A DNA stretch of 63,681 nucleotides, counting the filler, from Nemertoderma westbladi (Eukaryota; Animalia; Xenacoelomorpha): assembly GCA_032718475.1 (NCBI GenBank). It is 3 parts of 3 records of this genome, joined end to end, with 100 filler letters (N's around TTAATTAATTAA, not from the genome) between each part and the next. Parts side by side here need not be neighbours in the genome. Positions count along the whole stretch, not along the records: positions 1 to 26,162 come from JAUCBJ010005456.1; 2 more parts are not named here. One strand, given 5' to 3'. The notes under the pieces are model-generated. The model ran no database searches. It had not been told where the DNA came from and saw nothing but the letters and a program-made list of their open reading frames with translations. Below are positions 6,131 through 61,067 of this stretch, piece after piece. The position numbers were made by a program, and so were the translations under genes. How positions within the stretch are numbered: the first letter of the stretch is position 1; each line of letters begins with the position of its first letter.

Positions 6131-6323
6131 ATAATATAAGTAACACACGTCATAAACCAATTGAGGGAAAGGAGCAGGTTACAGAGGCAGACTTTTCTAA
6201 CCAAAGCAATAAACGGCCTCTTTACCAATTGAGGGAAAGGAGCAGGTTACAGAACAATGCACCAGTACTACTGTGCAATAAACTACAGTACCGGTACAGT
6301 ACAGGTCCAGTACAGTACAGGTG

Positions 6324-6668
6324 TCAAGTTCAATGCACACATCTCCAACCAGACACTATATAACATTGGAGGTGTCTCATTGGTTCCCCCAAGCTTGACA
6401 CTAGAACAAAATCGCCTCCGCTTTGCAGGACATTGCTTTCGCCGTGAGGACCAGCCAGTGCATAATCTTGTACTTTGGCAGCCTCATGGAGTGAATAAGC
6501 ATGGTGGACAGCCCATGACTTTCTTTCTTAAAGGACACTGGCCTTGAAGATGCGGAGATCTAGCAAATGTCATGGGTGATAGGGAGTTGTGGCGGTGCAA
6601 TTTTGTCGATAAGCCGGCACAGCATTCTTAAAAATGCAGCTGCAATGCAGCATGCCGATTCTAGTTCT
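6324..6668 (+). mobile_element. 5'-truncated RTE LINE (3' end only)
   Basis: Encodes the RTE C-terminal motif RLRFAGHCFR...VLWQP. 15-bp TSD AGTACAGTACAGGTG at 6309-6323 and 6669-6683. Confidence 0.8.
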
Positions 6669-6789
6669 AGTACAGTACAGGTGAAGGCCCTGAAATACGT
6701 TAGTCCTTAATTCGGTGCAATGTACTGACTACTGATACGAACTTGGATACTTTATATTGTGAATAACGGTAATTTATATACACCTGTTA

Positions 6790-8177
6790 ATGTTAAAGGA
6801 TGCTTACACAGTAGAAGTTCAAAACCGCTTTGAAGCACTTCAGTCAATGGATGAAGACCAGTCCACCGATTCAATATACCAGAATATAATAACAGCCCAC
6901 AAGGAATCAGCTAAGAGGCATATCCCCCAGAAACCCAAACGAAAACAGTACGTGCCATGGCAAAACTCTGAGGTTACTTGTAAGAGAGAAGATCTTAAGA
7001 TAGCCTACAAAGTTAAAACGGAACAACCAACAACAGAAAACATTAACAAGGTTGAGAAAGCTAAGGACGATCTTAAATTGGCCTACAACATCAGCCAGGA
7101 AAAGTACATACAGGATAAAATTGAAGCAATTACAACTGCTCACATACAGCAACAGTCAAGACTTACCTGGCAAACTGTAAATGAGGTATCTGGTCGGAAA
7201 AGTTGTGCAAAGGGGCGCCTCAAAGCCGATAGTCCTGAAGAACGTGTTGGGAAGTGGAAAAATCACTTCAGCAACTTGCTTGGGCAGCCACCAAACATCG
7301 AGGTCCACCCTATAAGGAAAATATATGACAAGACACTACCTATAGAAACAGGGGACTTCACACCTGCCGAACTCCAAAGAAGCATTAAAAGCATGTCCAA
7401 TAATAAAGCGAGTGGATTAGATGAAATCCCAGCAGAGGTATGGAAAACAGGACTGCTAAACAGACCATTATTGAATGTTTGCAACCGGATGTTAAAAGGG
7501 GAAAAGCCACCACCAATTTGGACTAAAGGTCAATTAAAGCCTCTCCCCAAGAAAGGAGACCTCGGTATACCAACAAACTATCGTGGGATCTGTCTGCTTG
7601 TGGTAGCTGCCAAAATATACCATAAAATGATTCTATATAGGATTAGGCCTCACATAGAGAAACTACTGCGTAAGAGCCAAAACGGATTTCGACCAAGTAG
7701 ATCAACAATAGCTCAGATACTTGCACTACGGAGACTGATTGAAGGAATTAAGTCAAAGAATCTCCCCGCAGTCATGACTTCTGTGGACTTCAAGAAGGCA
7801 TTCGACTCCATCCATAGAGGCAAAATGCTTGAAATCCTAAGAGCTTATGGAATACCAGAAGTAATTGTTGCTGGCATTGGATTGTTATATTGTGAAACAG
7901 AAGCGCAGGTACTCTCACCAGATGGTGAAACTGAGTTTTTCTCAATCCTGGCTGGGGTACTGCAAGGTGACACATTAGCACCATTACTATTTGCAATTGT
8001 GCTGGATTACGCAATGAGGACAGCCACAAAGGGTGAAGACCTGGGATTCACACTTCAAGAACGCAGAAGTAGTAGATATCCGGCAACTACAGTCACAGAC
8101 ACCGACTTTGCGGATGACATCGCCCTGCTCTCTAATACCCTAGCAGATGCACAGCTTCTACTAAATAAAGTGGAGAG
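6790..8177 (+). mobile_element. RTE-clade LINE reverse transcriptase, 5' part (interrupted by LTR element 1)
   Basis: Non-LTR RT motifs KASGLDEIP, NYRGICL, QNGFR, DFKKAFDSI, GVLQGDTLAP, FADD. The frame resumes at 20463 once the LTR element and one TSD copy are removed (KVE-R-AAKEVGLHIN). Confidence 0.93.
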
Positions 8178-9363
8178 TGTAAAAGCTTTTGCGGAATTAG
8201 CCGGTTATTTTCCCCGTAAAGTACTCTGTAGTTGGTTTAACAGGCATAAAAGGCCGTATCCTTACTGTACTGGTGTTTTGGGGGACATGGGAAGCCATTT
8301 CTTCTGTATGTGTACTTTAGCGGACATAATTAGCAATTCTATGACGCAATGCGCTAGATCCTCTTGAAACAGTGTAGTTACTATGACGACAGCTAACAGC
8401 TGAGCTGTACACGTGTAGCTTTTCCTTGTTCTCTGGTGTTTCTTTGTTCGGTCAACCAATCAGAGCGATTCTCCTGCTTTTTGTACAGAAACCTCCGGGA
8501 AATCGCGCAATGCATTATGGGTCAATGTTTACATTTTGTCCTGAGCCCAGAAGATCGGCTTTTGGAATCTCTGTGTTTTCAGTCTTTAGCCCAACATTAG
8601 TAGGCTTAATTATAGAACGTATATCTGTTATCAAACTAAACTCATCTCACAACTCACTCACCTAATCATATTGTCAACTACAAACACCGCATTTTTACTG
8701 CTATTTACTGTCGGTTATTCATTATATCTGTTGATGGAATATTATTATATTGGAGAATATCAATCAATAATCAGACACCCCAATCTTCTTGATATACTGA
8801 AGGTTAGAGAGAGCGGTTACATATAACGATTGCGACTTACATTAAAGTGGTTTTGAAGTGAATCTAATGCTATTTCATAGGCCCTACATGTATTGGTTGT
8901 TGTTCTCTTTATATGTGACTAGAATTAGTGAAGGTCGGCAGATCGGTGTGCAGCATTGTGCAGTATTGTGTATGATTGTGACTGATAACAAAGCATCTCC
9001 TAAAGAATGCGCCATATACGTGAATCTATAGCCATCCCGTTGTGTCTAGTTTAAGTCATAACTCTGTTTACATATTTAGAGCGCCACGTCCTAAAGGAAC
9101 TGTTAATATTTCCCGAAAGTGAATAATATTTGTCAGAGATTATATATTACGATCAGTCGAATAATAGAGTAGGCCTACACCGCAATACGGTTAGGCTTCC
9201 GAATCCAGTCTCCCGGGTATATCCAGCGGGTGAATGATCGCGCATAGACTGGCTTCGGCTAATGTAGTGTATCAAATACTCGTCATAGGCTAAAGACTAT
9301 CTATTATCTAGAAGACATCCCAATTTGGCAGGTTAAACTGCTAAAGGTCTGAAAGCGCGAACA
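8178..9363 (+). repeat. 5' LTR of element 1
   Basis: TGTAAAAGC...GCGCGAACA. About 9 substitutions versus 19272-20457 by eye (~99% identical). Confidence 0.96.
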
Positions 9364-9384
9364 ATAACAGATACAGCTTCTGTA
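9364..9384 (+). promoter_or_regulatory. PBS position of element 1: non-tRNA, complementary to LTR 8611-8631
   Basis: ATAACAGATACAGCTTCTGTA has no TGG. The first 10 nt are the exact reverse complement of 8622-8631; 18 of 21 positions pair, including one G-U. Confidence 0.75.
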
Positions 9385-9641
9385 TTGCAGTAGGCAATAA
9401 CGCTGAAGTACCGGACAACCGGTACCTAGTAGGCCTGACTACCTAACCACCCGGACCGGTACCTACAGCAGTACAGGTACAGCAGTATTATTCGATTTTG
9501 ATAATTATATACCGGTAGGCCTTAATAATTAATCAGGGACTGCAGCCCTGGTTTTTTATTGAGATTTTACTTATTTCTGTCAGTTTTATTTACTTGTAGG
9601 TTAATATTGAGCAGAAGACGTGTAAGCCTGCCCAGATTGTA

Positions 9642-10225
9642 CAGATAATTTGTAGGCTGGACTGTTGTCTGACTGTTGTTAAGTCTGAAGGGACTGTAGT
9701 GTGTGTAGAGTGTATGTCCGATAAATTACTAGTTAGGAAAGTAGGGGCTTCCAGTGCTGTGAGGTAAACCCCCTCGAAAGAATAAGTCGTACTACTCGGT
9801 TAGAACGCATACTAACTAACCATTTCGGAGTCTGCATATACTGTAGTTTGTTTAGGCTTGATAGTAGTCTGCCAGCGTTTGGTCTGTATTTTGTTTGTGT
9901 AGTTTGTACGGGTAGCGTAATATTTCTTATTCAGATAATTTGTAGGCTGGATTGTTGTCTGGCTGTTGTTAGGTCGGAAGAGATTGCGGTGTGTGTAGAG
10001 TGTATGTCCGATAAAGTGCCAGTTGGGAACGTAGGGGCTTCCAGTGCTGTGAGGTAAACCCCCTCGAAAGAATAAGTCGTACTACTCGGTTAGAACGCAT
10101 ACTAACTAACCATTTCGGAGTCTGCATATACCGTAGTTTGTTTAGGCTTGATAGTAGTCTGTCAGTATTTGGTCTGCATTTTGTTTGAGTAGTCTGTACG
10201 CGTAGCGTAATATTTATTATTCAGA
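9642..10225 (+). repeat. ~290-bp tandem duplication in the long 5' leader of element 1
   Basis: CAGATAATTTGTAGGCTGG recurs at 9642 and 9932. The same duplication is present in element 2 (~22540-23115). Confidence 0.85.
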
Positions 10226-11553
10226 GTTTATGCGATTATTCGCAACATTCATATCCCCAAGTTTACTCCTACAGTAATTGTGCTTGTTATATATACCGTT
10301 ATAGTTAAATTAACCCCGGTACTACATCAGGGCTGCTTGGCGTAGGTAAAGACTGGTGATTTTGTGCCCCGGTCACTCCAGCAGATACCGTGGTTCTTTT
10401 AGCTGTACAAGTATTTCTAACTACTGATTATTTGTTGTATAAGTACTTGTACCTAATTTAGGGTTTAGTGTACAGTGCTTTCCGAAGGCAATTAGTGTGT
10501 AGGCAGTATATTTGTGTTGTAAAGTGGTTAATAGGCACGTTGGTTCTGGTAGACCGCGGTAATTAACTTCTATGTAGGAACACTCCGTGATACATAACGT
10601 AGTACTTATAGCGATACGGCTATAAGTCGTCAGACGGTGGTATTTTCCTATCTGGACAACGCAATATATTTACTACTGCTTGTTATTTTCAAATACTGTA
10701 GTATCCTGTTCGTTGTAATAACCAGATAATCTAACCCTTTGTTAGACTGGTTTGTAGACTTCTTATAAAATTACCCTAAAAAATTCGTACTTGTAATTTT
10801 TGTGTTTATTTAGAGATTGTAATCTCACCCCGAATTGTATGTAATTTGTAGTATTAAGTAACTTAGGTAAATTAGAATTACTTGTTTTAGTGTCCAACAA
10901 GTAGCACTTCACTGAGAGTGTACAGCTTCTGTGCAGTGACTCCTTCCCAGAAATAATAACATTTATTTCAAATATTGACAAAAACCCATTAAAACGGGTA
11001 TATATATTATAAATCAACTCAAACAGATTTATAAATAGTAGGCCTGCCATACAACAATTAGGTCTTAATATCAGTTGGACTACTGCTCAAATAACGGTAA
11101 TAAAGTAAGTAAAGTAACCAAGTAACCCCTAAAAATTCAGAAATTCAATTATTTAAAATAATTGACATACCGGTATTCGCGATAGACTTATTATATTTAT
11201 TTCTATAAATTTAGGCTAAATTATATACCGGTATTCTGTGATTAATTCTAGTCTGTAATTATACTTATATATATACATTATAAGTGTAAGCTGTATACCG
11301 GTATTCACGATAGGCCTATTATATATTTATATATATTTGTGCTGAAATTACATACCTGTATTCTGTGACAAACCTAGTCTGTAATAATACTTATATATAC
11401 TATAAGCATACCGGTATTCTAATATATTATATATATATCAAGTTACATTCAGTGACGATATCGGTAATTAATTACTAGGCTAACAGTGATACTGAATTAC
11501 TAGACTTGCTTTAACTGTAATATAGCAGTAGACATTCAACTGTACAAACAAAC

Positions 11554-14500
11554 ATGTCTGACACAAAGCAAAACCTGTCAGACAGTCTCCTAGATACAAC
11601 CATCTGTGACCCAGACAGGAGTGTGGAACGTGTGAGACCGAAGTTCAACTCACCTCCTACTGTAAGAAAGATCATCCCTCCAGTAGTAGTATCAGACCCT
11701 AGGCTAGCCCAACACCGTAGGTCTATCATAGGCACTCGAGCTCAGGTCAAGCGGGACCAAGAAGCAGCAGAACAGCAGCAACACTCGAGCCGAGAACTTA
11801 TTTCTCAGCGGCCCGACAGCTCCAGTAGTGAGGATACTGTAGAGCTGACACCCGAGCACGGAGCAAAGATGACAGATGCGGTTTATTCGGATCCCCTTCT
11901 CATCCTTCCTGCAGCCGTACTCACTAGGGTATTGATTGCGGTGGAGGAACACCAGATTGATTGGGCGAAAGGTAAGCGATCGACTAAGGCTAGTTATGCG
12001 GGATACACACGGGAAGAACTGAAGTCTATTGTCGAGTCGCAATGGAACTTCCCCGGACCTGGACTCCCGTTTGACTTATCGGAAGCTGCCTGGGAAGACA
12101 TACACAGGATGGGAGTAACAAAGGAAACCATCGATCCAGCTGTGTGGAAGAGGTCTGCAGCAGGATACGTACAGGGATTCTTCAGCTCTTTGGAGAGATT
12201 AGAGGAACAACTGTTTCGACAACCCCAAGGACCTCAAGAGCAGGGAGAGCTGCTTTATCAAGTTCGAGAAAGAATTCTAAGAATCAGACTAATCTTATCA
12301 GCCTTTGAGGAGGCTTCGAAAAGAAGACAAGACACGTCGTTGCAAGTTGCCGTAAAGACTTGGTTTCAGCGAGTGAGTCTCAAAGTTCAAGGAACTGCCC
12401 AGTGGAAATCTCAGCTGGCTGAGCGCTCAACTCATGGAGAATCAACAGATGCTACATTTTCCCAAGTGGAAAGTGAAGCGACGGTAGAGAAACCGCATAA
12501 GAGGGATGCTATTGATATCTATCTGTCGGACTATCAACGTTTTGTAGGAGATAAGAGTTGAGGAGAAGGTTAGATGGACTTAGCCCTAACAGTGAAGGAA
12601 CCAAGCTTGTGTTGGACGCAATCGATGTGGATATGAGAGCTGCGAACCAAGCTAAATTTGATGAATGCCTCCGTATCGCTAGAGTCCAAGAAGAACAAGT
12701 AAAGAAAAAACGTATAGAAGACAGAAAGACAGTGGCAGTGGCAGCAGCAGTGGCAGAGGCAGAAGCGAAAAGAAAAGCAGCCGAAGTGGAAAGAAAGGCG
12801 GCAGAGGCAGAAGCGGAAAGAAAAGCAGCCGAAGTGGAAAGAAAAGCGGCAGCGGCAGCGGCAGAGGCAGAAGCTGATAGAAAAGTGGCAGAAGCAGAAA
12901 GAAAGGCAGTGGCAGAAGCAGAATGGAGAGCGGCTGAAGAGATCGCCCAACTGGAGTTGGAAAATATACAAGCAAATCAAGACTGCATAAATAAACAGTT
13001 AACAGCTAGTCAAATGCAGATGATGAGTTGATCTACTCCCAAAAGACAGGGATATACATCATCTGAGGAAGGCGATACCACCGATACTGAAGGTGGGGGA
13101 AATAGATCTCGTCTAAGCAGACATAGAAGAATGTCCCACCGTCAGAAATTGCCTGATTTGCCCCCAGCTGTTAGAAGGCAACTAACTAACACAGGCTTAG
13201 GTAGTACAGAACCCACAGACCAAATAATTAAAATAGAAAGACTCCCTACTATAGTAGATGAGCCTGAAATAATTAGGCCTGTTCTCGAAGCCACCCCCTC
13301 GGTGATAGAGACACCTGTACTCCCTGAACCTATCTCTAAATTCCCCCTGCACAGCACTAAGCTACTAAGCACTAAGCAGAACAGCCCATGAGACAGTTCA
13401 TGTCCTGGACTCCGAGCGAAATATTAATGATTTGTTGCCCGTTGTCCCTCGTCCGCCCGCTACAACGTTGGTGGCTCCCGCTTCGGCGGTCGAGTGGGTG
13501 GATGAGAGACGGCGGAGGATGGATCTCCTGCTCGGGCAGATGCAGGAGACTGTTAAGCAGTTCAAGGGCACAGTAAGGGAAAGTAGGTTAGAGTTGCAAG
13601 AAGTGCAGCAAAGTATCGCGTTAGAACGCGATAAATTAGTAAATACACAAAGGGTTATACTACCACCCCCGGTAACAATGTGTCAACCTGTTAGGTCTGA
13701 AGTATTTCATGCGCAAGGTGTGTAGCCTACACGCATCTATACTGCTAGCGAAGTGGAAACTCCTATAGTAAACCCTATTAAGGGTAATTATAAACCCGTT
13801 GACAATGATATCCCATATAGACTTGATAATAATCCGAGAAATTTATATACCGATAACTCGATATTAAATAACACGATGGCCCAAGAAAGTTTTACGCGTC
13901 AAATGGCTAGAACCGAAGCCCGTCAAGCGGTAAAGGTGGGATAGATCGTCAAGTTCAATGGAGATGAGATGAAATGGTTACCTTTTAATGAATATTACAA
14001 AGATAACATACAGAACTCTGTGCTATCTAATGGAGAGAAACTTAGATTCCTCATCGAGTGCTTGGAAGGATCTCCCAAGTTAATGGCGTTAAAGTTTATT
14101 GGACATCCAGATGGATTAAGACAAGTTTGGGATACACTAAACATCAGGTATGGTAATAGGAATAACATAGCTAGGTATTTATATCCGAAATTAATGGCGC
14201 CCCGAAAGTTTCTTAGCAGCGGGATTATAGAGTTTTCCGACGAGATTCAGGAGATCTGTAGACAACTAGATTGGTTAGGTAAGTCTCATGAATACCAGAA
14301 TTATATGGTTGTAGGAGCCTTAGCATCTACTTTGCCCAAGGGTGGAGTAGGTACACGCTGGGACAAGAAAGTGTTATATATGATGGAACAACAACGACGA
14401 GACCCTACCATGGCTGATCTCATGTCATTCTTAGATGGAGAGGTAAAATTACAGCTCCTAAGGCAGTCCAGAGAGAAGACACCGGAAAACAAGGTAAGTG

Positions 14501-16527
14501 AGAAACCCGTTTCTAGGAGAAAGGTAATACCAGTGTGTTATACAGACGACGGCGAAAGCCAGGCTTCTCAAGAGGAAGACAGCGGGAAAGACACTGAAAG
14601 ATCTTACTATGTCAATAAAACGCCTAAAGAGCAGGTAAGTAAATTCAAGTCTCGAACCAATGACAGGAGAGAACAGGTAAGAAAAACTCCTCCTACGTCT
14701 CCTAAGAGAATTCAGGTAAGAAAGCCCGAAGAAAGAACGAGTGTGCACAATGTTATTCAAAATAAGGTAAGTAACATCAAACCGAAATGTGTGCTATGTG
14801 ACGGGACCCACCGTTTGAATATGTGTGATGAATTCCTAAAGAAATCATTAACGGAGAGACGGGAAGTCATGTGGGATAAGCGCTTGTGTTATAATTGCCT
14901 CAGACGAGGACACCAACGGCGAACCTGTTACTCCGACGCAAGGTGTGCAAAGTGCGGCGCAAAACATCATATCTTGTTGCACACGGAATTCGAACGAAAC
15001 AGCCCGAGTCAGGTAAGTGAGTCCGAACTACATGTCCAATTCAGTGATGTGAACGACACTGACCAATGTTCTGAGATGGAAGGATTCTATACGGACGAAT
15101 TCTCCGACGAAAACGAATTCTGTTACCTGATAAATACTGCAGTGTATCGAGCACTTACGTATAAAAAGGACACCGACAGCGAGCTCCCCCCAACTACTTC
15201 TGACCGACAACCATCTTGGAAAGCACCAACTTCCAATGTAGGAATCCGAGAATTTCCCGTAGTGCAGCTAAGGGTCCACGGACCTGAAAGGAGTTATATA
15301 GTGAACGCCCTTCTTGACTCCGGTAGCACAGGAACATTCATCGACAAAGAACTAGCCGAAGACATCTTTGCTGGACAACCCAAGTTCCGAACTAAGTTAA
15401 ACATGTCAGGAATTATGCAGGTTTGGAAATCTACAGTAATAGCGGATTATTATGTAGGTGCGTTGTCCACCCCCCAGGATGAACTAGGAGAACACAGCAT
15501 AAGGTCAGTAAAAATGGTGGCGATAAAGAACTTCGCTACCAGCCAAGTAGAACCTTATAACTGGGATGAGGACGATTTCACCCAGCAGTTTGATATACCT
15601 AGATTCAACACAGATTACCCTGGAGTGCAAATACTCATCGGCCAAAATGCGCATGAGGCGCTTGAGACATTGGAGAAACGGCCTGCTCAACCGCAACCAC
15701 TACAAGCCTATGCGGGAAGAACTAGAGTAGGTTGGTACCTTACTGGCCCTTCCCGTAGAACTCTCATAGAAAGGTTACCAAAAGAACGGGTATACCAAGT
15801 AAGTGAATGGGAAGCGGAGAGCAGTGAGGTAGACGACCCAACTGAGGGAACACCATACTCCTCAGATAATGACGATATTAACTCCAATGTAGATCAATGG
15901 AGACATTGCCTCGAGACGATAAATCTAGTCGACATCGCTTCCAGAGGAGCAACTCCTCAAGAACTGACAGATACTCCAGACTGGTTAGGTGGACCCGACT
16001 TCTTAAGTAAAGAAGATGAATGGCCTCCCCATCTTACCACGGCTGAGATTAGACAAGCCAAGGGAGCGGAGAAAGTCAAACCTAAAACCCGGACGAGTAA
16101 ATCAAGGTTATTTAAACCCGTGATAGATCTGTCTGTATTACACATTGCCAGGGACGACGCTGTGGATCTAAACTCCCCCACCGCGAACCGATCTGTTGTG
16201 GAGATCAGAGAGAGAGACTGGAGATCTGGAACACCAGACGTCTCGCCGGGACTCTCACCTCTCCTGCCGGGAGCGATGGACCACTATAGATCCTGGAATC
16301 GGCTTTGTAAGGCCGTCGTGTATTTGAAGCGATGTTTCTATCGTCACTATTCCAGGACGAAGAGGAAACCTGGAATTGTCTTCGAGACACAGCAGCTCAA
16401 TCTCCCAGTTGGTCGTTTATGTTTACTGGAAACAGACCGAGAACTGTCCGGAAACTATGGAAGGCAAGATACTCTTCCCACGACCACCTCCCTAATCCAA
16501 CAAACATCTAGGGACTCCCCAACGTAA
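11554..16527 (+). pseudogene. Disrupted BEL/Pao gag-protease polyprotein; RT, most of RNase H and integrase missing
   Basis: Frameshifts near 12553 and 13370-13430; stops at 13029, 13723 and 13942. The 852-aa ORF 13969-16527 has DUF1759-like gag, three knuckles (CVLCDGTHRLNMC, CYNCLRRGHQRRTC, CAKCGAKHHILLH), protease ALLDSGSTGTFI, RTRVGWYLTGP, then directly QWRH...DIASRG...WLGGPDFL. Confidence 0.9.
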
Positions 16528-17836
16528 CAGCGTCTGGAGTGGGTGTGTGACTATATTTGTATTTGTTTTTATTATTTTATATTTATGTATGTATTATTAT
16601 GTAATTTTACCTTGGAAACGACTTGCCTCTTCTCACTGACATTGCTTCGTGCGATATTGCTCTCATACCGTATATTAAATAATACATATAGTAGCGTGAT
16701 GTCCCTTTAACAGTAGCGTACAACGCAAATAAATCTGTTAAACCCTTTGACCATCTGCAATTCTAGTCGATTAAGATATTGCGGCACCCACCGATATACT
16801 TGAAAGACAAAATTCTAGAATCAGTGGTTAACGTCCCCAGACAAGTTCTGGAATAAACTGTTGCCCATCCTAAATATTAATTATTAATATTTACAAAATC
16901 TGTCAAATTTTAGATCCTTTAAAATTCTAGTCTATTAAGATATCGTAGTACTTACCGATATTCTTAAAAAGACCAATTTCCTAGAATCAAGGATCCTAGT
17001 CCCCAGACATGTTCTGGAATAAAATTGTGTCTATTTAATATTAAATAATAAAATTTACGGGAATAAATTTAAATTCATATTTTAATGAATTTGATAAATT
17101 GTCATTTTTATGCAATTTATAACATTCCCAAAATTCCATAAATTAATAGATAATGGGAGCGGAGATTCACCCTATTAAGTATATTAGTGTGCGAGAATCT
17201 CCAATATGTAGTCAATAGCCGATAAAATTCATAAAATCATGTATAGAGAGGATATTGACCATTAAAGAATTACTATTAAATAGCATCCCAGATCTGTATG
17301 CATGAGAATTACCCTAATTCTACCGCTAGCTTTCCATAATGTCACCATAGCAACAACCACGCTAGAATTAGAAGTGAGTTAAAAGAACAATAAAGCTTGG
17401 CCATTGAATAGCATAAGGAATAAATAGCACACTGCTAGTATCCCAGGATACCCAATAATAACGTGGCATTCTGGAAGGCACTGACTAACGGACAAATGGC
17501 CCGAATGTGTGCGATTTGTGACAGTGGTGTGGAGTTTGTGTGTTTGTAGGTGAATGTTACTACTAAAGTGTGTTTACAGTAGCGAGTCGCAATTGTGAAA
17601 GTAGCCCTTCTCCAGTAAGAACCTGAAGTAAATCTAAGCCTTTGGGATGGACGGTGGAGTGACTCGCGCTGGTTGTTGTAGTCGTTGTGCAGCTACGACG
17701 TTGGCGATAGGCACATCGGCGAAAGTACACCAGCGCTGAGGATCTTGCGCTGTCCGGGGGCCGAGAGGGGTAGGCAGCGACGCTCGCTAGCCTAAATATA
17801 AACTCATTATAATATTGATAAACTCATATAGCAGAT

Positions 17837-19193
17837 ATGACTGAGTTGATAGAAGATGATCTTGGTAACAGGGAGCGATATGCTCTACCTTTACAAACGT
17901 TTGTTGATAGCTTGATACGCGGCGATGCTGGTCCAACTACTACAGAGGACGATGGTCGTTATATCGAACCGCCAATGTCCCAGGAGCAACTTACGCGTGA
18001 ATTGGACTATAGAAACTTCACCGCTCGCTATACGCATCGTAATGGTACGCATATGGACTTCTTAACTACTGGTCATCCTATCGATTTACACGATATGGAC
18101 GATGTCGACACCGAAAGGGAAATGGTACTGTTTGAGTATCCTACCCAGCGGAGTCGGAATGATAAACTGAAAATCGAATGCGAAAATTCTATTCGAAATC
18201 GACTCAAAAGAGAAGACGTTAAAGAACTGGATAAACGCGGTAACTCCAACGTATATTTGGAATTCTTGAGAGAAACATTGTAAAACCGAATAAATATCAC
18301 CCGCGTTTCCCCTACAAGACGTGCGTCTTTGGTATTATTGCAATGAATACCCAAGACCCAACCAACAAACGGAAAGACATAAACATCCGTAGAGACGTTG
18401 CTTTAAACACGGTTACTCGCTATATTTACGGGAGTTTCGCGCGAAACTTGTTCGATGTATCACCTACGCTCGCTCGATTCAAACAATCCTTAAATAAACC
18501 TATGATCAGAGTTCCGGAATACTCGGTCAGACCTCCTCATTCCCTAGTTAGACCTCAGACTCTTGATCCTAATAGTATCATGGATCCTCCCGAACTGTAC
18601 TCACTGTTCAAAGATCTAGTGCTACCCGAACAGTTAGTCGGTGGCACTCCGGTTGTGGGCTCCCTAAATATTCGCCCATCTTACCTAGTCGGATTGGGAC
18701 GCGGACATCTAATATCGTCATTCAACCGTATCATCGTCCCTGTTTAACCCGATACAACCTGTCACAGAAGCGGAGGAAAGAGTTGTACGAAACGCGTTGG
18801 ACACTATTCGTCAAAAGATCGGAAAATGAACCTACAATTGTTTAGAGAAACGTAAATTGCAGCAGCAAGTCCAAGCGGTAAACGAATTAAATTTATCTCA
18901 GTTCGATCAGGAAATTCAGAATCTCCAAGAAGATATCGAACTTGGACGACCCTATTCTCTGCAAGAGTTTTGGACGAACGCATCCAACGATAAGCGGAGG
19001 AAAATCAGCTCGAGGAGAAGCATATCGAAATGGACGAGACATCGACCGTAACCCTAAACCTTCAGATGCAATTGTATTGCACCCTTTACCCAGGAGTTAT
19101 AGCCCTCCTAGTAAAGTGGCTCGCCCCAAAGAGAAAAGGACTCTTGCTAGCCTCAAAAAACTGCGTAAACGCCGTCCGCGTAAGAAAGACTAA
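17837..19193 (+). pseudogene. Frameshifted extra 3' ORF of element 1, unknown function
   Basis: Consecutive ORF pieces 17837-18283, 18343-18747, 18857-19051 and 18942-19193. The first two join with a single-base frameshift near 18275. Basic C-terminus KKLRKRRPRKKD ends just before the PPT. Confidence 0.55.
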
Positions 19194-19271
19194 CTTTTTA
19201 GAGTATTTTTATATTTTAGAAACTGTGATTTTTTATATTTTATAGACTTAAATCCCATTTTCTGGGAGTGG

Positions 19272-20457
19272 TGTAAAAGCTTTTGCGGAATTAGCCGGTT
19301 ATTTTCCCCGTAAAGTACTCTGTAGTTGGTTTAACAGGCATAAAAGGCCGTATCCTTACTGTACTGGTGTTTTGGGGGACATGGGAAGCCATTTCTTCTG
19401 TATGTGTACTTTAGCGGACATAATTAGCAATTCTATGACGCAATGCGCTAGATCATCTTGAAACAGTGTAGTTACTATGACGACAGCTAACAGCTGAGCT
19501 GTACACGTGTAGCTTTTCCTTGTTCTCTGGTGTTTCTTTGTTCGGTCAACCAATCAGAACGATTATCCTGCTTTTTGTACAGAAACCTCCGGGAAATCGC
19601 GCAATGCATTATGGGTCAATGTTTACATTTTGTCCTGAGCCCAGAAGATCGGCTTTTGGAATCTCTGTGTTTTCAGTCTTTAGCCCAACATTAGTAGGCT
19701 TAATTATAGAACGTATATCTGTTATCAAACCAAACTCATCTCACAACTCACTCACCTAATCATATTGTCAACTACAAACACCGCATTTTTACTGCTATTT
19801 ACTGTCGGTTATTCATTATATCTGTTGATGGAATATTATTATATTGGAGAATATCAATCAATAATCAGACACCCCAATCTTCTTGATATACTGAAGGTTA
19901 GAGAGACCGGTTACATATAACGATTGCGACTTACATTAAAGTGGTTTTGAAGTGAATCTAATGCTATTTCATAGGCACTACATGTATTGGCTGTTGTTCT
20001 CTTTATATGTGACTAAAATTAGTGAAGGTCGGCAGATCGGTGTGCAGCATTGTGCAGTATTGTGTATGATTGTGACTGATAACAAAGCATCTCCTAAAGA
20101 ATGCGCCATATACGTGAATCTATAGCCATCCCGTTGTGTCTAGTTTAAGTCATAACTCTGTTTACATATTTAGAGCGCCACGTCCTAAAGGAACTGTTAA
20201 TATTTCCCGAAAGTGAATAATATTTGTCAGAGATTATATATTACGATCAGTCGAATAATACAGTAGGCCTACACCGCAATACGGTTAGGCTTCCGAATCC
20301 AGTCTCCCGGGTATATCCAGCGGGTGAATGATCGCGCATAGACTGGCTTCGGCTAATGTAGTGTATCAAATACTCGTCATAGGCTAAAGACTATCTATTA
20401 TCTAGAAGACATCCCAATTTGGCAGGTTAAACTGCTAAAGGTCTGAAAGCGCGAACA
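19272..20457 (+). repeat. 3' LTR of element 1
   Basis: Direct repeat of 8178-9363, followed by TSD GAGAG. Confidence 0.96.
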
Positions 20458-20462
20458 GAGAG

Positions 20463-21042
20463 GGCTGCTAAGGAGGTTGGATTGCATATAAATGCTACCA
20501 AGACCGAATTCATGACCTTTAATTTTGATGGAAACTTGACAACCATTGACAATAATCAACTAAGGAAGGTTGCCGACTTCCAGTACCTTGGATCATGGAT
20601 AGAGAGTAGCAAAAAGGACATAGAAGTTAGGAAAGCAAAGGCTTGGGTAGCTCTATTAAAAATGGATACCATCTGGAAATCAGATCTCTCCAGGCACCTG
20701 AAGACTAAGTTCTTTCGAGCCACAGTGGAAAGTGTATTTTTATACGGGGGTGAGACCTGGACACTCACTAAATCACTTGAACAACGAATTGATGGTTGCT
20801 ACACAAGACTACTAAGGGCAGCCCTAAACATCAGCTGGAGACAACACATGACAAACGCCGAGCTTTATGGTACAATACCACCTGTATCAACCACCCTCCG
20901 TGAACGCAGATTAAGATTCAGTGGGCACTGCTGGTGAAGTAAAGACGAGGTCATACCAGATCTACTTTTCTGGCAACCAACTCATGGAAAGCGTAGTCGT
21001 GGACGACCGGCCATAACATATATAGATCAACTTGAAAGGGAT
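20463..21042 (+). mobile_element. RTE LINE continuation (RT thumb and C-terminus), cut by LTR element 2
   Basis: GLHINATKTEFM, FQYLGS, RRLRFSGHCW*, LFWQPTHGKRSRGRP. Premature TGA at 20935. Confidence 0.92.
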
Positions 21043-22270
21043 TGTAAAAGCCTTTGCTGAATTGCCCCGTTATTTTTATTATCTTTTACATTAAAATACT
21101 CTGTAGTTGATTTAATAAGTGTAAGAGACCGTATTATTGCTGTATCGGTGTTTTTAGAGGATCTAAGACCTATTTCCTCCGTATGTGTACTGTGAAAGGC
21201 ATATTTTATGATTCTATGGCAATTCGTGACGCAAAAGGGTGATAGCTACTCTTGAACAGTAGTTACTATGACTACGGTTAACAGCTGACATTCATACGTG
21301 TTGATTTCCTTTGTTCTACGGCGTCTCTCAGTTCAGTCAGCCAATGAGAGCGTTTTTGTGGCTCCTTGTACAGAAAATTTCCGAGAAATGACGCAATGCC
21401 TATGTGCAGTGTTTACATTCAGTCTTGAGCCAAAGAAAGAACGGCTTGGAAGTATTTTGTGCTGTACTGCTTTTTAGTCGTACACTAGTAGGTTTAATTA
21501 TAAAGGGCATATATCCTTTAACTGATGACTGCTGACTGATCATACATGCTGACTGCTGAAACATTGCAAACTCATAACAATCAGTGTTTTCATTGTTGTT
21601 TTATACTGCTATTTACCGTCAGTTCTTCATAATATGGTTGATGAATAATTATATTTGGAATAACGATAAACAACCCCTAAACCCAATATTCTTGATATAC
21701 CGAAGGTAAGAGAGAAGGGTTACAAATAAACGATTGTGACTTATGTTAAAGTGGTTTGAAGTGAATCTAATGTTATTTGATAGACCCTACATGATTCAGT
21801 CTGTGTTCCTTTTATATGTGACTAAAATCAGTGAAGATTGGCAGATTAGTGTGCAGTATTGTGCAGCATTGTGTATGAGTGAGTCTGTTAAAGAAGCAAT
21901 TCCTAAAGAATGCGCCATATATGTGAATTATAATTAAGCCATATCGTTGTGAGTAGTTTAAGTCATAACTCTGTTTATATAGATAAAGCGCCACGTCCTA
22001 AAGGAACTGTTAATATTACCGAAGGTGAATAATATTGTCAGAGATTATATATTACTGTCAGTCGAATAATACATTAGGCTTACATAGCAATAAAAATTAA
22101 ACCGTCGAACCCAATCTCCCGGGAATATCCAGCGGGTGAATGGTCGCGCACGGATTGGTTTCGACTAGTGTAGTGAATCAAATACTTGTCATAGACTAAA
22201 AAGCGATTTATTATCTAGAAGACATTCTAATTTGGCGGGTTAAACTGCCAAAGGTCTGAAAGCGCGAACA
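21043..22270 (+). repeat. 5' LTR of element 2 (1228 bp)
   Basis: TGTAAAAGC...GCGCGAACA termini identical to element 1; interior homologous but diverged. Confidence 0.92.
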
Positions 22271-22292
22271 TTAAAGGATATAGCTTCTTTAT
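22271..22292 (+). promoter_or_regulatory. PBS position of element 2: non-tRNA, complementary to LTR 21500-21521
   Basis: TTAAAGGATATA is the exact reverse complement of 21510-21521; 20 of 22 positions pair, including two G-U. Confidence 0.78.
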
Positions 22293-24430
22293 TGCAGTAA
22301 GCAATAAAGTCGAAAGTACCGGTCGACCGGTAACCAGTAGGCCTGACTGCCTGATCATCCGGACCGGTACCTACAGCAGTATTATTCGATTTTGATAGTT
22401 ATATACCGGTAGGCCTTAATAATTAATCAGGGAGGGCCCGCCCTGGTTTTTTATTGAGATTTTTACTTATTTCTGTCAAGTTTTATTTATTTGTAGGCCA
22501 GTATTGAACAGAAGGCGTGTAAGCCTGATCAGATTGTACAGACGATTTGTAGGCTGAGCTGTTGTCTGATTGCTGTTAAGTCCGAACGAGTTGCAGTGTG
22601 TGTAGAGCACTTGTCCGATTAAGTACGGTTAGGAAGTAGGGGCAGCCAATGCGGTAAGGTAATCCCCCAGCTAAAGAATAAGTCGCACTACTGGGTTAGA
22701 GCGCATACTCCCTAATCATTTTGGAGTCTGCATGTCCTGTAATTTATTTAGGCTTGAGAGTAGTCTGCCATCGTTTGGTCTGTACTTTGTTTGTGTAGTC
22801 TGTACAGGTAGCGTATAATATCATTTAGATAATTTGTAGGCTGGATAGTTGTCTGTCTGTTATTAGGTCTGAACGGATTGCAGTGTGTGTAGAGCCCTTG
22901 TCCGATAAAGAACGGTTGGGAAGTTGGGGTAGCCATTGCTGTAAAGTAAACCCCCAATTAAAGAATAAGTCGTACTACTGGGTTAGAACGCATACTACCT
23001 AACTATTTCGGAGTCTGCATGTCCTGTAGTTTATTTAGGCTTGATAGTAGTCTGTCAGTATTTAGTCTGCATTTTTGTTTGAGTGGTTTGTACGCGTAGC
23101 GTAATATTTATTATTCAGAGTTTATGCGATTATTCGCAACATTCATTCCCCAAGTTTGTTCCTACAGTAATTGTGTTTGTTATACATACCGCTATAGTTA
23201 AATTAACCTCGGTACTACACGGGCTGCTTGGCGTAGGTAAAGACTGGTGATTTTGTGCATCGGTCACTCCAGCAGATGCCGTGGTTCTTTTAGCTGTTCA
23301 AGTATATTTAACTACTGATTATCTGTTATATAAGTACTCGTACCTAATTTAGGGTTTAGTGTACAGTACTTTCCGAAGTAATTATTGTAGACATTATATC
23401 TGTGTTGTAAAGTGGTTGATAGGCACATTCGATTAGCTCTATTAACTTCTAGGTAGGAACACTCCGTGATACATAACGTAGAACCTACAGCGATACGGCT
23501 ATAGGTCGTCAGGCGGTGGTATTTTCCTATCTGGACAACGCAGTGTATTTACTACTACTTATTATTTCAAATACCGTAGTACCCTGTCCGTGTAATAACC
23601 AGTTTTCTAACCCTTTGTTAGGCTGGTTTGTAGACTTCTTGTAAAATTACCCTAAAAATTCGTATTTTGTGTTTTTTGTAAATTTTTGTGTTTATTTAGA
23701 GATTGTAATCTCACCCGAATTGTACGTAATTTGTAGTATTAAGTAACTTAGGTAAATTAGTATTATTTGTTTTAGTGTCCTGTACGTAACACTTCACTGA
23801 AAGCGCACCGCTTTGTGTAGTGATTACTCCCCAGAAATAATAACATTTATTTCAAACATTGACAAAACCCATTAAAACGGGTATATATATTATAAATCAA
23901 ATCTAACGATTTATAAATCGTAGGCCTACCATACAACCATTAGGCCTCAATATCAGTTGGATTACTGCTCAAATAACGGTAATAAAGTAAGTAAAGTAAC
24001 AAAGTAAACCCTAAAGTAACAGAAATTCAATTATTTGAAATAATTGATATACCGGTATTTACGATAGGCCTATTATCTTTATTTCTATAAATCTAGGCTG
24101 AAATTATACCGGTACTTGTAATTAATTCTATTTCAGAATTATATATCCTACAAACTGTAAGCTGTATACCGGTATTCCGATAGGCCTATTATATATTTAT
24201 ATATATTTGTGCTAAAATTATACCGGTATTCTGTGATAAACCTAGTCTGTAATAATACTTATATAGTTATATATACTATAAGTATACCGGTATTCTAATA
24301 TATTATATATATATCACGCTACACTGAGTAGCAGTAACGGTAATTAATTACTAGGCTAACAGGTAATACTGAGTTATTAGACTTACTCAGACTGTAATAC
24401 AGCAGTAGACATTCAACGGTATACATAGTC

Positions 24431-26162
24431 ATGTCTGATACTAAGCAGAACCTGTCAGACAGTTTATTAGATGTAACTATCTGCGACTCAGATAGAGACG
24501 TACAACCGTCTGGTCGTAAATCCAGTTCACCTCCCACTGTGAGGAAGGTCATCCCTCCAGTAGTAATAACAGAACCTAGGCTAGTCCAACATCGTAGGTC
24601 TATCATAGGCACTCGAGCTCAGGTCAAGCGGGACCAAAAGGCAGCGGAACAGCAACAACCCGCTAGTCAAGAACTTATTCCTCAGCGGCCCAGCAGCTCC
24701 AGTAGTGAGGATACTGTAGAGCTGACACCCGAGAGCGGAGCAGAGATGACGGATGCGGTTTATACGGATCCCCTTCTCATCCTTCCTGCAGCCGTGCTCG
24801 CTGGGTTATTGATCGCGGTGGAAGAACACCAGATCGATTGGGCGAGAAGTCAACGGTCAACTAGAGATAGCTACGCGGGCTACACTAGTGAAGAACTGAA
24901 GTCTATTGTCGAGTCGCAATGGAACTTCCCCGGACCCGGACTCCCATTTGATTTATCAGAAGCTGCCTGGGAAGACATACACAGGATGGGAGTAGCCAAG
25001 GAAACCATCGATCCAGCTGTGTGGAAGAGGTCCGCAGCCGGATACGCACAGGGATTCTTCAGCTCTATGGAGCGAATAGAAAAGCAACTTTTTCAACAAC
25101 CTCAAGGACCTCAAGAGCAGGGATCGCTGCTTTATCAAGTTAGAGAAAGAGTTCTGCGGATTAGGCTAATCTTATCCGCCTTTGAGGAGGCTTCTAAAAG
25201 AAAACAAGACACGTCGTTGCAAGTTGCCGTAAAGACTTGGTTTCAACGGGTGAGTCGCCAGGTTCAAGGAGCAGCTCAGTGGAAGGCTCAGTTGGAGGAG
25301 CGCTCAACCCATGGAGAATCAACAGACGCTACTTTTTCCCAAGTGGAAAGTGAAGCGACGGCAGAGAAACCGCATAAGAAGGATGCCATTGATATCTATC
25401 TGTCAGACTATCAGCGTTTTGTGGGAGATGAAGAGTTGAGGAGAAGGCTAGAGGGACTTAGCCCTAATAGCGAAGGAGCCAAACTTGTGTTAGATGCGAT
25501 TGATGTGGATAAGTTAGCGGCGAACCAAGCTAAATTCGATGAACAACTCCGCATCGCTAGAGAAAGGGAAGAACAAGTAAGGAAAAGGCGTATAGAAGAC
25601 AGAAAGATAGCAGCAGTGGCAGAGGCAGAAAGAAAAGCGGCAGCGGCAGAGGCAAAAGCGGCAGCGGCAGCGGCAAAAGCGGCAGCAGTGGCGGAAGCAG
25701 AACGAACAGCGGCAGCGGCAGAGGCAAAAGCGGCAGCGGCAGCGGCAAAAGCGGCAGCAGTGGCGGAAGCAGAACGAACAGCGGCAGCGGCAGAGGCAAA
25801 AGCGGCAGCAGCAGAGGCAAAAGCGGCAGCAGTGGCGGAAGTAGAACGAAAAGCGGCTGAAGAGATCATCCAACTGGAGTTGGAAAATCTTCAAGAGAAG
25901 CAAGACAACTTCAATAAACAGTTAACAGCGAGCAATATGCAGATGATGAGTCGATCTACTCCCAAGAGACAGGGGTATACATCATCTGAGGAAGGCGATA
26001 CCACCGACACTGAAGGCGGAAGAAATCGATCTCGCCTAAGCAGACGTAAAAGAACATTCCACCGGCAGAAATTACCTGATTTGCCTCCAGCTGTTAGAAG
26101 GCAACTAAATAACACTAACTTAGGTAGTACAGAGCCCACAGACCAAATAATTAAAATAGAAA
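24431..26162 (+). CDS. N-terminal part of the element 2 gag polyprotein (open up to the gap; Ala/Glu/Lys coiled-coil repeat)
   Basis: Uninterrupted homologue of 11554-13240, lacking the frameshift and stop seen in element 1. Confidence 0.85.
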
Positions 26163-26262
26163 NNNNNNNNNNNNNNNNNNNNNNNNNNNNNNNNNNNNNN
26201 NNNNNNTTAATTAATTAANNNNNNNNNNNNNNNNNNNNNNNNNNNNNNNNNNNNNNNNNNNN
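26163..26262. other. Assembly gap with artificial TTAATTAATTAA linker
   Basis: N-run, six-frame stop linker, N-run; 100 nt in total. Confidence 0.97.
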
Positions 26263-32339: not shown

Positions 32340-32535
32340 CAAAGCGACCCTCCACGTTAGACCGTCTAGCCTTACCGGTCTCCATCGGTTTACGTTGTCG
32401 GAATGGTCCGTCTCCGACGGAGAATCCAGAATGGCTGATAAAGGTCGACAACTTTCGATTGGTAATGGATACGCTAGTTCCTTCATTGTTCTAGAACCGT
32501 CTAATATTGGTATCGTAGACAGTGGGAAGATTGAG
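32340..32535 (+). CDS. Protein DD3-3-like, exon
   Basis: CAG acceptor, open frame KATLHVRPSSL...DSGKIE, GTTAGT donor; phases 2 and 0 fit the adjacent exons. Confidence 0.8.
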
Positions 32536-32606
32536 GTTAGTAAAGGGATGTAAAACACGTGAATAACACGTAAATGAAAAAATTAAAGTAGAGTAATAAT
32601 CTAAGT

Positions 32607-35600
32607 GACCAAGGGACTGTAATACAGTAGAGGCGACAGCTGTAATCCGGGACCAAGGGACTGTAATACAGTGGAGGCGACAGCTGTAATCCGGGACCAA
32701 GGGACTGTAATACAGTAGAGGCGACAGCTGTAATCCGGGACCAAGGGACTGTAATACAGTGGAGGCGACAGCTGTAATCCGGGACCAAGGGACTGTAACA
32801 CAGTAGAGGCGACAGCTGTAATCCGGGATCAAGGGACTGTAATACAGTAGAGGCGACAGGTGTAATCCGGGACCAAGGGACTGTAATACAGTAGAGGCGA
32901 CAGTTGTAATCCGGGACCAAGGGACTGTAATACAGTGGAGGCGACAGCTGTAATCCGGGACCAAGGGACTGTAATACAGTAGAGGCGACAGCTGTAATCC
33001 GGGACCAAGGGACTGTAATACAGTGGAGGCGACAGCTGTAATCCGGGACCAAGGGACTGTAATACAGTGGAGGCGACAGCTGTAATCCGGGACCAAGGGA
33101 CTGTAACACAGTAGAGGCGACAGCTGTAATCCGGGATCAAGGGACTGTAATACAGTGGAGGCGACAGCTGTAATCCGGGACCAAGGGACTGTAATACAGT
33201 GGAGGCGATGACAGCTGTAACCCGGTACCAAGGGACTGTAATACAGTAGAGGCGACAGCTGTAATCCGGGACCAAGGGACTGTAATACAGTAGACTGGTA
33301 GAGGCGACAGCTGTAATCCGGGACCAAGGGACTGTAATACAGTGGAGGCGACAGCTGTAATCCGGGACCAAGGGACTGTAATACAGTGGAGGCGATGACA
33401 GCTGTAACCCGGTACCAAGGGACTGTAATACAGTAGAGGCGACAGCTGTAATCCGGGACCAAGGGACTGTAATACAGTAGACTGGTAGAGGCGACAGCTG
33501 TAATCCGGGACCAAGGGACTGTAATACAGTGGAGGCGACAGCTGTAATCCGGGACCAAGGGACTGTAATACAGTACAGGCGACAGCTGTAATCCGGGACC
33601 AAGGGACTGTAATACAGTGGAGGCGACAGCTGTAATCCGGGACCAAGGGACTGTAATACAGTAGACTGGTAGAGGCGACAGCTGTAATCCGGGACCAAGG
33701 GACTGTAATACAGTGGAGGCGACAGCTGTAATCCGGGACCAAGGGACTGTAATACAGTAGAGGCGACAGCTGTAATCCGGGCCAAGGGACTGTAATACAG
33801 TAGAGGCGACAGCTGTAATCCGGGACCAAGGGACTGTAATACAGTAGACTGGTAGAGGCGACAGCTGTAATCCGGGACCAAGGGACTGTAATACAGTGGA
33901 GGCGACAGCTGTAATCCGGGACCAAGGGACTGTAATACAGTACAGGCGACAGCTGTAATCCGGGACCAAGGGACTGTAATACAGTGGAGGCGACAGCTGT
34001 AATCCGGGACCAAGGGACTGTAATACAGTAGACTGGTAGAGGCGACAGCTGTAATCCGGGACCAAGGGACTGTGATACAGTGGAGGCGACAGCTGTAATC
34101 CGGGACCAAGGGACTGTAATACAGTAGACTGGTAGAGGCGACAGCTGTAATCCGGGACCAAGGGACTGTAATACAGTGGAGGCGACAGCTGTAATCCGGG
34201 ACCAAGGGACTGTAACACAGTAGAGGCGACAGCTGTAATCCGGGATCAAGGGACTGTAATACAGTAGAGGCGATAGGTGTAATCCGGGACCAAGGGACTG
34301 TAATACAGTAGAGGCGACAGTTGTAATCCGGGACCAAGGGACTGTAATACAGTGGAGGCGACAGCTGTAATCCGGGACCAAGGGTCTGTAATACAGTAGA
34401 GGCGACAGCTGTAATCCGTGACCAAGGGACTGTAATACAGTAGAGGCGACAGCTGTAATCCGGGCCAAGGGACTGTAATACAGTAGAGGCGACAGCTGTA
34501 ATCCGGGACCAAGGGACTGTAATACAGTAGACTGGTAGAGGCAACAGCTGTAATCCTGGACCAAGGGACTGTAATACAGTGGAGGCGACAGCTGTAATCC
34601 GGGACCAAGGGACTGTAACACAGTAGAGGCGACAGCTGTAATCCGGGATCAAGGGACTGTAATACAGTAGAGGCGACAGGTGTAATCCGGGACCAAGGGA
34701 CTGTAATACAGTAGAGGCGACAGTTGTAATCCGGGACCAAGGGACTGTAATACAGTAGAGGCGACAGTTGTAATCCGGGACCAAGGGACTGTAATACAGT
34801 GGAGGCGATGACAGCTGTAATTCGGGACCAAGGGTCTGTAATACAGTAGAGGCGACAGCTGTAATCCGGGACCAAGGGACTGTAATACAGTAGAGGCGAC
34901 AGTTGTAATCCGGGACCAAGGGACTGTAATACAGTGGAGGCGATGACAGCTGTAATTCGGGACCAAGGGTCTGTAATACAGTAGAGGCGACAGCTGTAAT
35001 CCGTGACCAAGGGACTGTAATACAGTAGAGGCGACAGCTGTAATCCGGGCCAAGGGACTGTAATACAGTAGAGGTGACAGCTGTAATCCGGGACCAAGGG
35101 ACTGTAATACAGTAGACTGGTAGAGGCGACAGCTGTAATCCGGGACCAAGGGACTGTAATACAGTGGAGGCGACAGCTGTAATCCGGGACCAAGTGACTG
35201 TAATACAGTAGAGGCGACAGCTGTAATCCGGGACCAAGGGACTGTAACACAGTAGAGGCGACAGCTGTAATCCGGGATCAAGGGACTGTAATACAGTAGA
35301 GGCGACAGCTGTAATCCGGGACCAAGGGACTGTAATACAGTGGAGGCGATGACAGCTGTAATTCGGGACCAAGGGTCTGTAATACAGTAGAGGCGACAGC
35401 TGTAATCCGGGACCAAGGGACTGTAATACAGTAGAGGCGACAGTTGTAATCCGGGACCAAGGGACTGTAATACAGTGGAGGCGATGACAGCTGTAATTCG
35501 GGACCAAGGGTCTGTAATACAGTAGAGGCGACAGCTGTAATCCGTGACCAAGGGACTGTAATACAGTAGAGGCGACAGCTGTAATCCGGGCCAAGGGACT

Positions 35601-37934: not shown

Positions 37935-38063
37935 AATGGACTTAAAACAATGTCACATTAATTCACTCATTTTTTAAAATATTAGTGAGAAAAAGGGGAT
38001 TTTTCAAATAAATATTATACTCCTATTTAATTTTGTTCAGGTTTAAAACGGTACTTTCAGTTT

Positions 38064-40971: not shown

Positions 40972-41038
40972 CCGCCACCTATAGTGTATTTTCATTCGAA
41001 CCAGCTAAATACTTAATAAGTAAATTTTATGATTTCAG

Positions 41039-41356
41039 ATGGAAATAAAAATAGAGAATTACACAGGAGAAGTTGTCTCCATCTACCGGTCAGACCCTGA
41101 TCTGTTAGCGCTGTGGGTCTATGTGGATTCCAATATAACAGGAAACTTTGCGAGTTTCTATACCGACCGCGGTGGCGTGTACGTGGCTCGAACTTCCTTA
41201 AATACATCAGCAATCGTAACCGGTATCCTAGTGTCTGTTGCGATAGTAGCACTGGTTATTGGGACTGTTCTTTATTTCCGCTTTAGACCCCAGAAATGGA
41301 ATTCTTTGAAAACTTCAGTGAGACATTGTGGATTGTCCATGAAATCTGCGGTTTGA
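41039..41356 (+). CDS. Protein DD3-3-like, last coding exon with a transmembrane helix
   Basis: TTTCAG acceptor in phase 0; GGVYVAR, hydrophobic AIVTGILVSVAIVALVIGTVLYF, basic tail and TGA. Confidence 0.82.
   Translation: MEIKIENYTGEVVSIYRSDPDLLALWVYVDSNITGNFASFYTDRGGVYVARTSLNTSAIVTGILVSVAIVALVIGTVLYFRFRPQKWNSLKTSVRHCGLSMKSAV

Positions 41357-60360: not shown

Positions 60361-61067
<707 letters not shown>

Follow-up and report, generated by a model that had tools for sequence, protein, structure and literature searches.

How does a long terminal repeat (LTR) retrotransposon start reverse transcription when no primer-binding site (PBS) of the transfer RNA (tRNA) type follows its LTR? The question is raised by two related BEL/Pao-type elements of Nemertoderma westbladi (GCA_032718475.1), found in a 63,681-nt stretch of DNA, hereafter the window, of which positions 1-26,162 correspond to JAUCBJ010005456.1 and whose parts are separated by 100-N filler. 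From the sequences of these elements, we consider it probable, at about 80%, that they are primed by their own RNA, a segment of the LTR annealing to the PBS directly behind it. Element 1 spans positions 8178-20457 and, together with the homologous LTR of element 2, is delimited by the following features.

8178-9363, plus strand: 5' LTR of element 1, 1186 nt, TG...CA ends
19272-20457, plus strand: 3' LTR of element 1, 1186 nt, nine differences from the 5' LTR
8173-8177 (left) and 20458-20462 (right), plus strand: 5-bp target-site duplication, interrupting the reverse transcriptase (RT) frame of a long interspersed nuclear element (LINE)
19264-19271, plus strand: short purine-rich tract before the 3' LTR of element 1, at the position of the polypurine tract (PPT)
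21043-22270, plus strand: 5' LTR of element 2, 75% identity to the 3' LTR of element 1

Element 2 aligns with element 1 at 82% over ~5 kb and is truncated on its 3' side by the assembly gap 26163-26262. An earlier note on this DNA had taken the LTR end to be fixed by an LTR pair and a target-site duplication; this is correct for element 1, whereas the LTR end of element 2 (22270) is set solely by homology with element 1. The sequences expected to pair are located immediately after these ends and within the LTRs.

8620-8631, plus strand: predicted 3' segment of the self-primer, element 1
19714-19725, plus strand: copy of this segment in the 3' LTR of element 1
9364-9375, plus strand: PBS of element 1, without TGG; 11/12 pairs with 8620-8631, mismatch at pair 11
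21510-21521, plus strand: predicted 3' segment of the self-primer, element 2
22271-22282, plus strand: PBS of element 2; 12/12 pairs with 21510-21521

As the earlier note had stated, a TGG-type tRNA PBS is absent from both elements: the nearest TGG after the LTR end lies at +186 nt in element 1 and +174 nt in element 2. Furthermore, ARAGORN found no tRNA in the window, and a search of the elements with Rfam returned one chance-level match and no tRNA-like RNA. The complement of the LTR segment starts at the first base after the unique 5' region (U5) in both elements, which is where the 3' end of the primer is placed. The PBS 12-mers of the two elements differ at four positions, and pairs 1, 5 and 6 are altered on both strands with pairing retained; the probability that three LTR-side changes would hit changed PBS positions and all compensate is ~7e-4. 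When Watson-Crick runs were anchored at the first post-LTR base, the run of 10 in element 1 was reached by 8/2000 LTR shuffles and the run of 12 in element 2 by 0/2000. Similarly, the cognate duplexes have energies of -16.4 and -19.4 kcal/mol as compared with -10.4 and -4.6 kcal/mol for the swapped ones, a gain of 6 and 15. A PBS complementary to the element's own LTR, with covariation, is thus present in the window elements as in those of the Tf1 type. The ~12-bp helix, its double compensatory changes and the position of the primer end, all proposed in the earlier note, are borne out.

Beyond these 12 bp, the note had continued the pairing with a 2x2 loop and a second helix including a covarying pair 19. 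This second helix is probably wrong. A 2-nt indel misaligns the two sites, and the helix is weak (-4.1 and -2.6 kcal/mol); because the indel separates the 12-bp helix from a conserved upstream block, the bases set against each other in pairs 15-22 are not homologous. The covariation of position 19 is with 9188/22093, in a helix of its own, duplex d, which together with duplex g could flank the primer-binding region.

9173-9188, plus strand: LTR arm of duplex d, element 1; 9182-9188 with 9382-9388 and 9173-9178 with 9390-9395, one compensatory change per half
9382-9395, plus strand: leader arm of duplex d, element 1, 3' of the PBS
22078-22093, plus strand: LTR arm of duplex d, element 2; partners 22289-22295 and 22297-22302
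9235-9243, plus strand: arm of duplex g, element 1; pairs with the LTR end 9355-9363 (8/9) and adjoins the PBS
22141-22149, plus strand: arm of duplex g, element 2; partner 22262-22270

Leader bases 19-32 pair perfectly with the LTR arm of duplex d in both elements. Compared with shuffles, duplex d, on the 3' side of the PBS, gives P 0.005 for element 1 and 0.109 for element 2, and duplex g, at the end of U5, P 0.035 and 0.020, respectively. Directly after duplex d, the leader of element 2 carries a poly(A)-signal hexamer (22303-22308), from which the corresponding word of element 1 (9396-9401) is one base off; this hexamer sits in an alternative local hairpin that competes with duplex d.

The primer probably also extends in the 5' direction, over a zone with possible contacts to U5.

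8583-8611, plus strand: 5' extension of the primer; three candidate helices could join it to U5 (a, 8583-8591 with 9288-9296; b, 8594-8601 with 9258-9265; c, 8603-8611 with 9189-9197)

In helices a and b, the pair probability is mostly >0.8 in both elements, and such strong prediction points to a start of the RNA on the upstream side of 8583. All three helices stay candidates, since helices with a single compensatory change are common by chance. The column scan used for covarying helices bypassed the primer helix, within whose 12 bp the aligner placed the 2-nt gap, and this helix was tallied directly.

The most telling evidence for pairing at the RNA level comes from relatives of these elements; for the window family, whose site is contiguous, it applies by analogy. 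Alignment of 10 BEL/Pao polyproteins led to 71 loci in metagenome contigs, based on the top 80 of 602 stretches found in part of the collection. Among 24 loci with hand-assigned LTR ends, 17 contain a stretch of 10-15 bp that can pair with the sequence after the LTR; one of these complements is contiguous and 16 appear only across a GT-AG junction inside the LTR. Since many LTR ends had been picked after the pairing was seen, blind tests were run over every CA/TA candidate upstream of gag, on 40 loci, the other 31 being excluded for short upstream DNA, an unclear gag start or duplication. With loose splice sites, 9/40 loci were significant at P<=0.05. With consensus donors and junction matches only, a restriction chosen after the matches had been seen, the number rose to 20/40, and 32/40 loci had any junction. 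In this strict test L047 and L049 represent one family and L014 has a P of 0.052. The four loci without TGG whose ends are fixed by LTR overlap (L001, L008, L024 and L047) were all positive, L029, which has a TGG site, and L004 were negative, and the overlap end of L020 is ambiguous. Donors at the matches are of strong consensus in 16/17 cases against 65/653 in the background. An accident at the DNA level cannot account for a complement that is created by intron removal alone, and the pairing should therefore act on RNA.

In 13/19 relatives, as compared with 156/3800 control windows, a poly(A) hexamer follows the primer end at a distance of at most 60 nt, which would make an overlap of the repeat region (R) available for strand transfer. 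The PBS sequences are many and unrelated, each matched by its own LTR, and in several relatives pairing begins at base 3-5 after the LTR, not at base 1. TGG-type sites occur in L025, L029 and L067; early motif-based TGG labels for L004, L032, L039, L054 and L068 were unreliable, and L032 and L039 later passed the splice-junction test. Most positive loci fall into one large RT-RNase H clade of modest support (0.787), with L039 outside. The latter (7009-7274; 250-263) has a 14-bp spliced complement and groups with tRNA-PBS loci in both trees, a placement that may mean that self-priming is older or has arisen more than once. In L001, 753-766 and 912-925 form an unspliced self-complement of 13/14 whose pair-3 mismatch is shared with the spliced complement of L006; it is possible that L001 represents an intron-loss form.

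The LTRs of the window elements themselves contain two intron-like zones.

8306-8589, plus strand: candidate LTR intron 1; its donor-like and acceptor-like sites occupy homologous positions in the two elements
8803-9136, plus strand: candidate LTR intron 2, with a donor-like site in both elements and an acceptor judged by eye

An LTR block at 9070-9170, which falls within candidate intron 2 and is among the best conserved of the LTR, shows 88% identity between the elements and the highest contig depth in all four sequencing runs described next.

Variation within the family was followed in contigs from runs X1 and X3 (organism A), X4, and X5 (organism B), where figures are summed contig depth, not copy counts. 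The element family is abundant in X1 and X3 and is also found in X4 and in X5. Among 40 of the 346 rows of the variant table, PBS position 5 is polymorphic (34% of summed depth in X1 and 22% in X3), as is position 6 (74% and 81%), and at the mismatched pair 11 nearly all family contig depth in X1 and X3 carries the pairing base. In one X5 contig the LTR site occurs in a third version, with a change at pair 6 and unphased with any PBS. A different post-LTR sequence in X5 may be the genomic flank of a 3' LTR and was not used as evidence. DNA-pattern scans for family members found none in viral contigs, metagenome contigs or prokaryote genomes, and protein scans of viral contigs gave no match. 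Contig coverage also draws attention to the zone just past the primer segment.

8632-8692, plus strand: hypervariable tract, beginning directly after the primer segment

Identity between the elements is 69% over 8583-8631, 33% over 8632-8692 and 72% beyond, and family coverage collapses at 8632-8638, with an ~8-fold drop in X1 from 8631-8634 to 8635-8638. The tract and the drop in coverage could mark a template end at which strand-transfer errors have piled up; a transcription start near 8640 would look similar.

How could such a primer be produced? Transcription would start at or upstream of ~8583, and the RNA would fold as a Tf1-like pseudoknotted 'pretzel', with the primer on the PBS, the U5 end on 9235-9243 and the leader on 9173-9188. 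U5 may in addition be held by the 5' extension of the primer, much as it is by an arm of the tRNA in retroviruses. RNase H of an autonomous partner would cut near 8631/8632, and RT would proceed through U5 and R as far as the cut before jumping to the 3' LTR. Errors at this template end would generate the hypervariable tract from 8632, while the PBS and the LTR site would stay matched because the primer is copied when the plus strand is made. For many relatives, the prediction is that splicing of an LTR intron puts this primer together; with a cut just past the junction, RT would never copy the spliced joint from the 5' end, so that the intron could be inherited from the 3' LTR. That the primer acts in cis, as the cut 5' fragment of the element's own RNA, is the course that we favour by a little over even odds. 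Whether much of BEL/Pao has abandoned tRNA priming is, to our mind, evenly balanced: most such families would then have the host spliceosome join the primer from two LTR exons, and the window family would be an intron-free form, with a 50-nt self-primer gripping U5 at several places in the manner of a tRNA and a mutational scar left after the cut in each cycle.

Several points weigh against self-priming. Only two phased copies are present in the window. The two flanking duplexes recur in 0/16 and 1/16 relatives and are not general, and helices with one compensatory change number 45 against 55 per column shuffle. In nested folding, the primer helix has a probability of 0.00 in element 1 and 0.05 in element 2, but it crosses other helices and would form a pseudoknot, which ViennaRNA does not score. 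In a quick gag-protease tree the branch of element 1 is very long, and its placement with the spliced-primer relatives failed. A TATA-like word at 8610-8617, which differs between the elements, overlaps the primer site; if it were a promoter, the 5' copy of this site would be untranscribed. Moreover, the Tf1 primer consists of the first bases of the RNA and the window primer would not. Priming from own RNA, as advanced in the earlier note, is supported by the covariation, the splice-dependent complement of many relatives and the possible flanking Tf1-like duplexes, while the mechanism itself, with its transcription start, cut and splicing, is inferred.

The self-derived primer could also act in trans or come from the 3' end, if a trimmed or cut short LTR transcript, or the 3'-LTR copy, annealed to unspliced genomic RNA; the short transcript would be capped, polyadenylated in the LTR and, in relatives, spliced. 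The poly(A) signal within 60 nt of the primer end in 13/19 relatives speaks for this arrangement, under which the intron could be inherited with no need for one LTR copy to be spliced selectively, and the TATA-like word would leave only the 3' copy in RNA. However, in the window elements 732-749 nt separate the primer segment from the LTR end, a canonical poly(A) signal is no nearer than ~200 nt downstream, the TATA-like word is not the same in the two elements, and a cut in the 3' copy would presumably split R from the template needed for transfer; we regard this arrangement as rather unlikely. One variant, put forward in the earlier note, had the 3'-LTR copy serve as primer if the transcript ends there. 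A transcript simply ending at 19725 is disfavoured and was rejected: in the 13/19 relatives the poly(A) signal falls downstream of the primer end, so that a cut would be needed anyway, and no canonical poly(A) signal is near this site in the window.

An explanation by RNA structure alone, selected for packaging, dimerisation, translation or splicing control, with priming left to a small RNA or a protein, appears improbable. It would accommodate the several possible long-range helices of the LTR-leader region and the offset of pairing to base 3-5 in several relatives, but not easily a complement that always lies at the PBS position across divergent families with its sequence free to change, nor elements in which no other primer site is visible up to the first TGG and Rfam shows no tRNA-like RNA. 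Very improbable is priming by a host tRNA, through its 3' end or an internal fragment, with the LTR complement being secondary. The family is described as tRNA-primed by the International Committee on Taxonomy of Viruses (ICTV; PMC8742986), TGG-type sites exist in three sampled loci, and half-tRNA priming is reported for copia elements (PMC6317226); on the other hand, TGG is missing here, a 12-mer that differs at four positions between close elements is polymorphic in the family, and the unrelated PBS sequences of relatives are each matched by their own LTR. Chance, or a functionless inverted duplication at the DNA level, can hardly be credited. On energy alone the 22-mer of element 1 is unexceptional (79/500 shuffles, against 0/500 for element 2), and two near-complements of the 12-mers exist elsewhere in the window, but this explanation is largely refuted by the shuffles, the compensatory changes and the complement existing only after intron removal in 20/40 relatives.

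The assignment of the window elements to BEL/Pao rests on their proteins.

11521-13031, plus strand: upstream gag-region frames of element 1, broken near 12555 relative to element 2
13945-16527, plus strand: Gag, protease and RNase H tail of element 1, with DUF1759 and a triple Cys-His box; RT is missing, as is the greater part of RNase H and of integrase
24398-26162, plus strand: gag-region open reading frame (ORF) of element 2, ending at the assembly gap

A homologue search with the upstream gag-region protein (11521-13031) returned none. In the 13945-16527 frame, DUF1759 was detected with E 1e-11, three Cys-His boxes were counted, and the protease motifs LLDxG (as LLDSG) and LIG are present; the triple Cys-His box and the protease motifs are among the Pao/BEL hallmarks named in PMC554778. 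All longer homologues of this frame (10/10) are BEL/Pao polyproteins with PF05380 and PF03564, and its alignment to one of them, P0007, skips residues 668 to 1229, passing from the protease to the RNase H tail. Element 1 therefore shows the LTR pair, TG...CA ends, target-site duplication, Gag boxes and protease motifs of BEL/Pao; it lacks a complete pol (protease, RT, RNase H, integrase), and both elements lack the 18-nt host-tRNA PBS. The Ty3/gypsy chromovirus proteins of the Tf1/sushi group are not found, the window proteins being of BEL/Pao type. Element 1 is thus no complete member of BEL/Pao but a derivative of it, young and non-autonomous, and without RT it must borrow this enzyme from elsewhere. 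Short ORFs at 17822-19193, between the deleted pol and the PPT, have no Pfam match above cut-off and are possibly remnants of an accessory gene.

Both LTR elements lie within one LINE copy (6763-8177 and 20458-21042), element 2 being ~580 nt 3' of element 1, which may reflect a nested hotspot or a target preference. The 2-kb leader of each element contains a tandem duplication of ~290 nt (9642-10225 and 22539-23119). Elsewhere in the window, 32500-47700 and 60200-61150 consist of large tandem arrays with units of 44, 32, 63, 52 and 8 nt, and the long open frames in them are repeat artefacts. A dispersed repeat is present as near-identical inverted copies at 6321-6672, 53974-54334 and 57261-57441.

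Taken with the above, the feature is real: a variant of a known self-priming mechanism in a superfamily described as tRNA-primed. Proof of self-priming exists for Tf1 only; for gypsy lineages related to it and for some of copia, self-priming is a prediction. If the interpretation given here is true, a third LTR superfamily self-primes, often with a splice-made primer that links splicing to the initiation of reverse transcription. Splice-made primers would couple replication to splicing and let an LTR intron survive reverse transcription; the elements would probably no longer depend on the supply of tRNA or be open to silencing through tRNA fragments, and annotation pipelines that filter on a tRNA PBS could miss them. 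No BEL/Pao self-priming or splice-made primer was found in the literature covered, with most subscription papers, supplements, Repbase and GyDB outside this coverage, and an earlier remark is possible. Cer7 of C. elegans is said to encode a tRNA-like primer. The words primer, PBS and tRNA are all absent from PMC3118150, and the last two also from PMC554778; the passages covered of PMC3601003, PMC3286476, PMC8220671, PMC7472051 and PMC5443660 hold nothing on BEL/Pao self-priming.

How, finally, do the window elements compare with known systems? According to the ICTV profile (PMC8742986), Belpaoviridae have an 18-nt PBS that fits tRNA-Arg or tRNA-Gly and are primed by host tRNA, the latter in agreement with the earlier note; their replication is called poorly understood. 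The window elements share with this family the Gag DUF1759, the triple Cys-His box, LLDSG/LIG, the RNase H tail, TG...CA LTRs and the 5-bp target-site duplication; they differ in having no tRNA PBS and, for element 1, in the loss of RT and of the larger part of both RNase H and integrase. In the plant lineages Tcn1 (gypsy) and TAR (copia), self-priming was predicted from sequence alone (PMC6317226); these belong to other superfamilies and to plant hosts, and the available part of that paper mentions no splice-junction primer. Self-priming of Tf1 was shown experimentally (PMC7175516 and PMC4600332), and its 'pretzel' has two duplexes adjoining the PBS (PMC10085805). With Tf1/Tf2 (S. pombe), Tj1, Tosmo1-3 and Tf1/sushi, the window elements share a post-LTR PBS complementary to their own LTR through an 11-12 bp duplex (PMC10085805 and PMC7175516). 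Both PBS-adjacent duplexes of Tf1 are possible in the window elements and mostly absent in the relatives. Unlike Tf1, whose 11-nt primer comprises bases 1-11 and whose mechanism is experimental, the window elements are known from sequence and belong to another superfamily, their primer likely has a 5' extension of at least 40 nt, and that of their relatives is predicted to be built by splicing.

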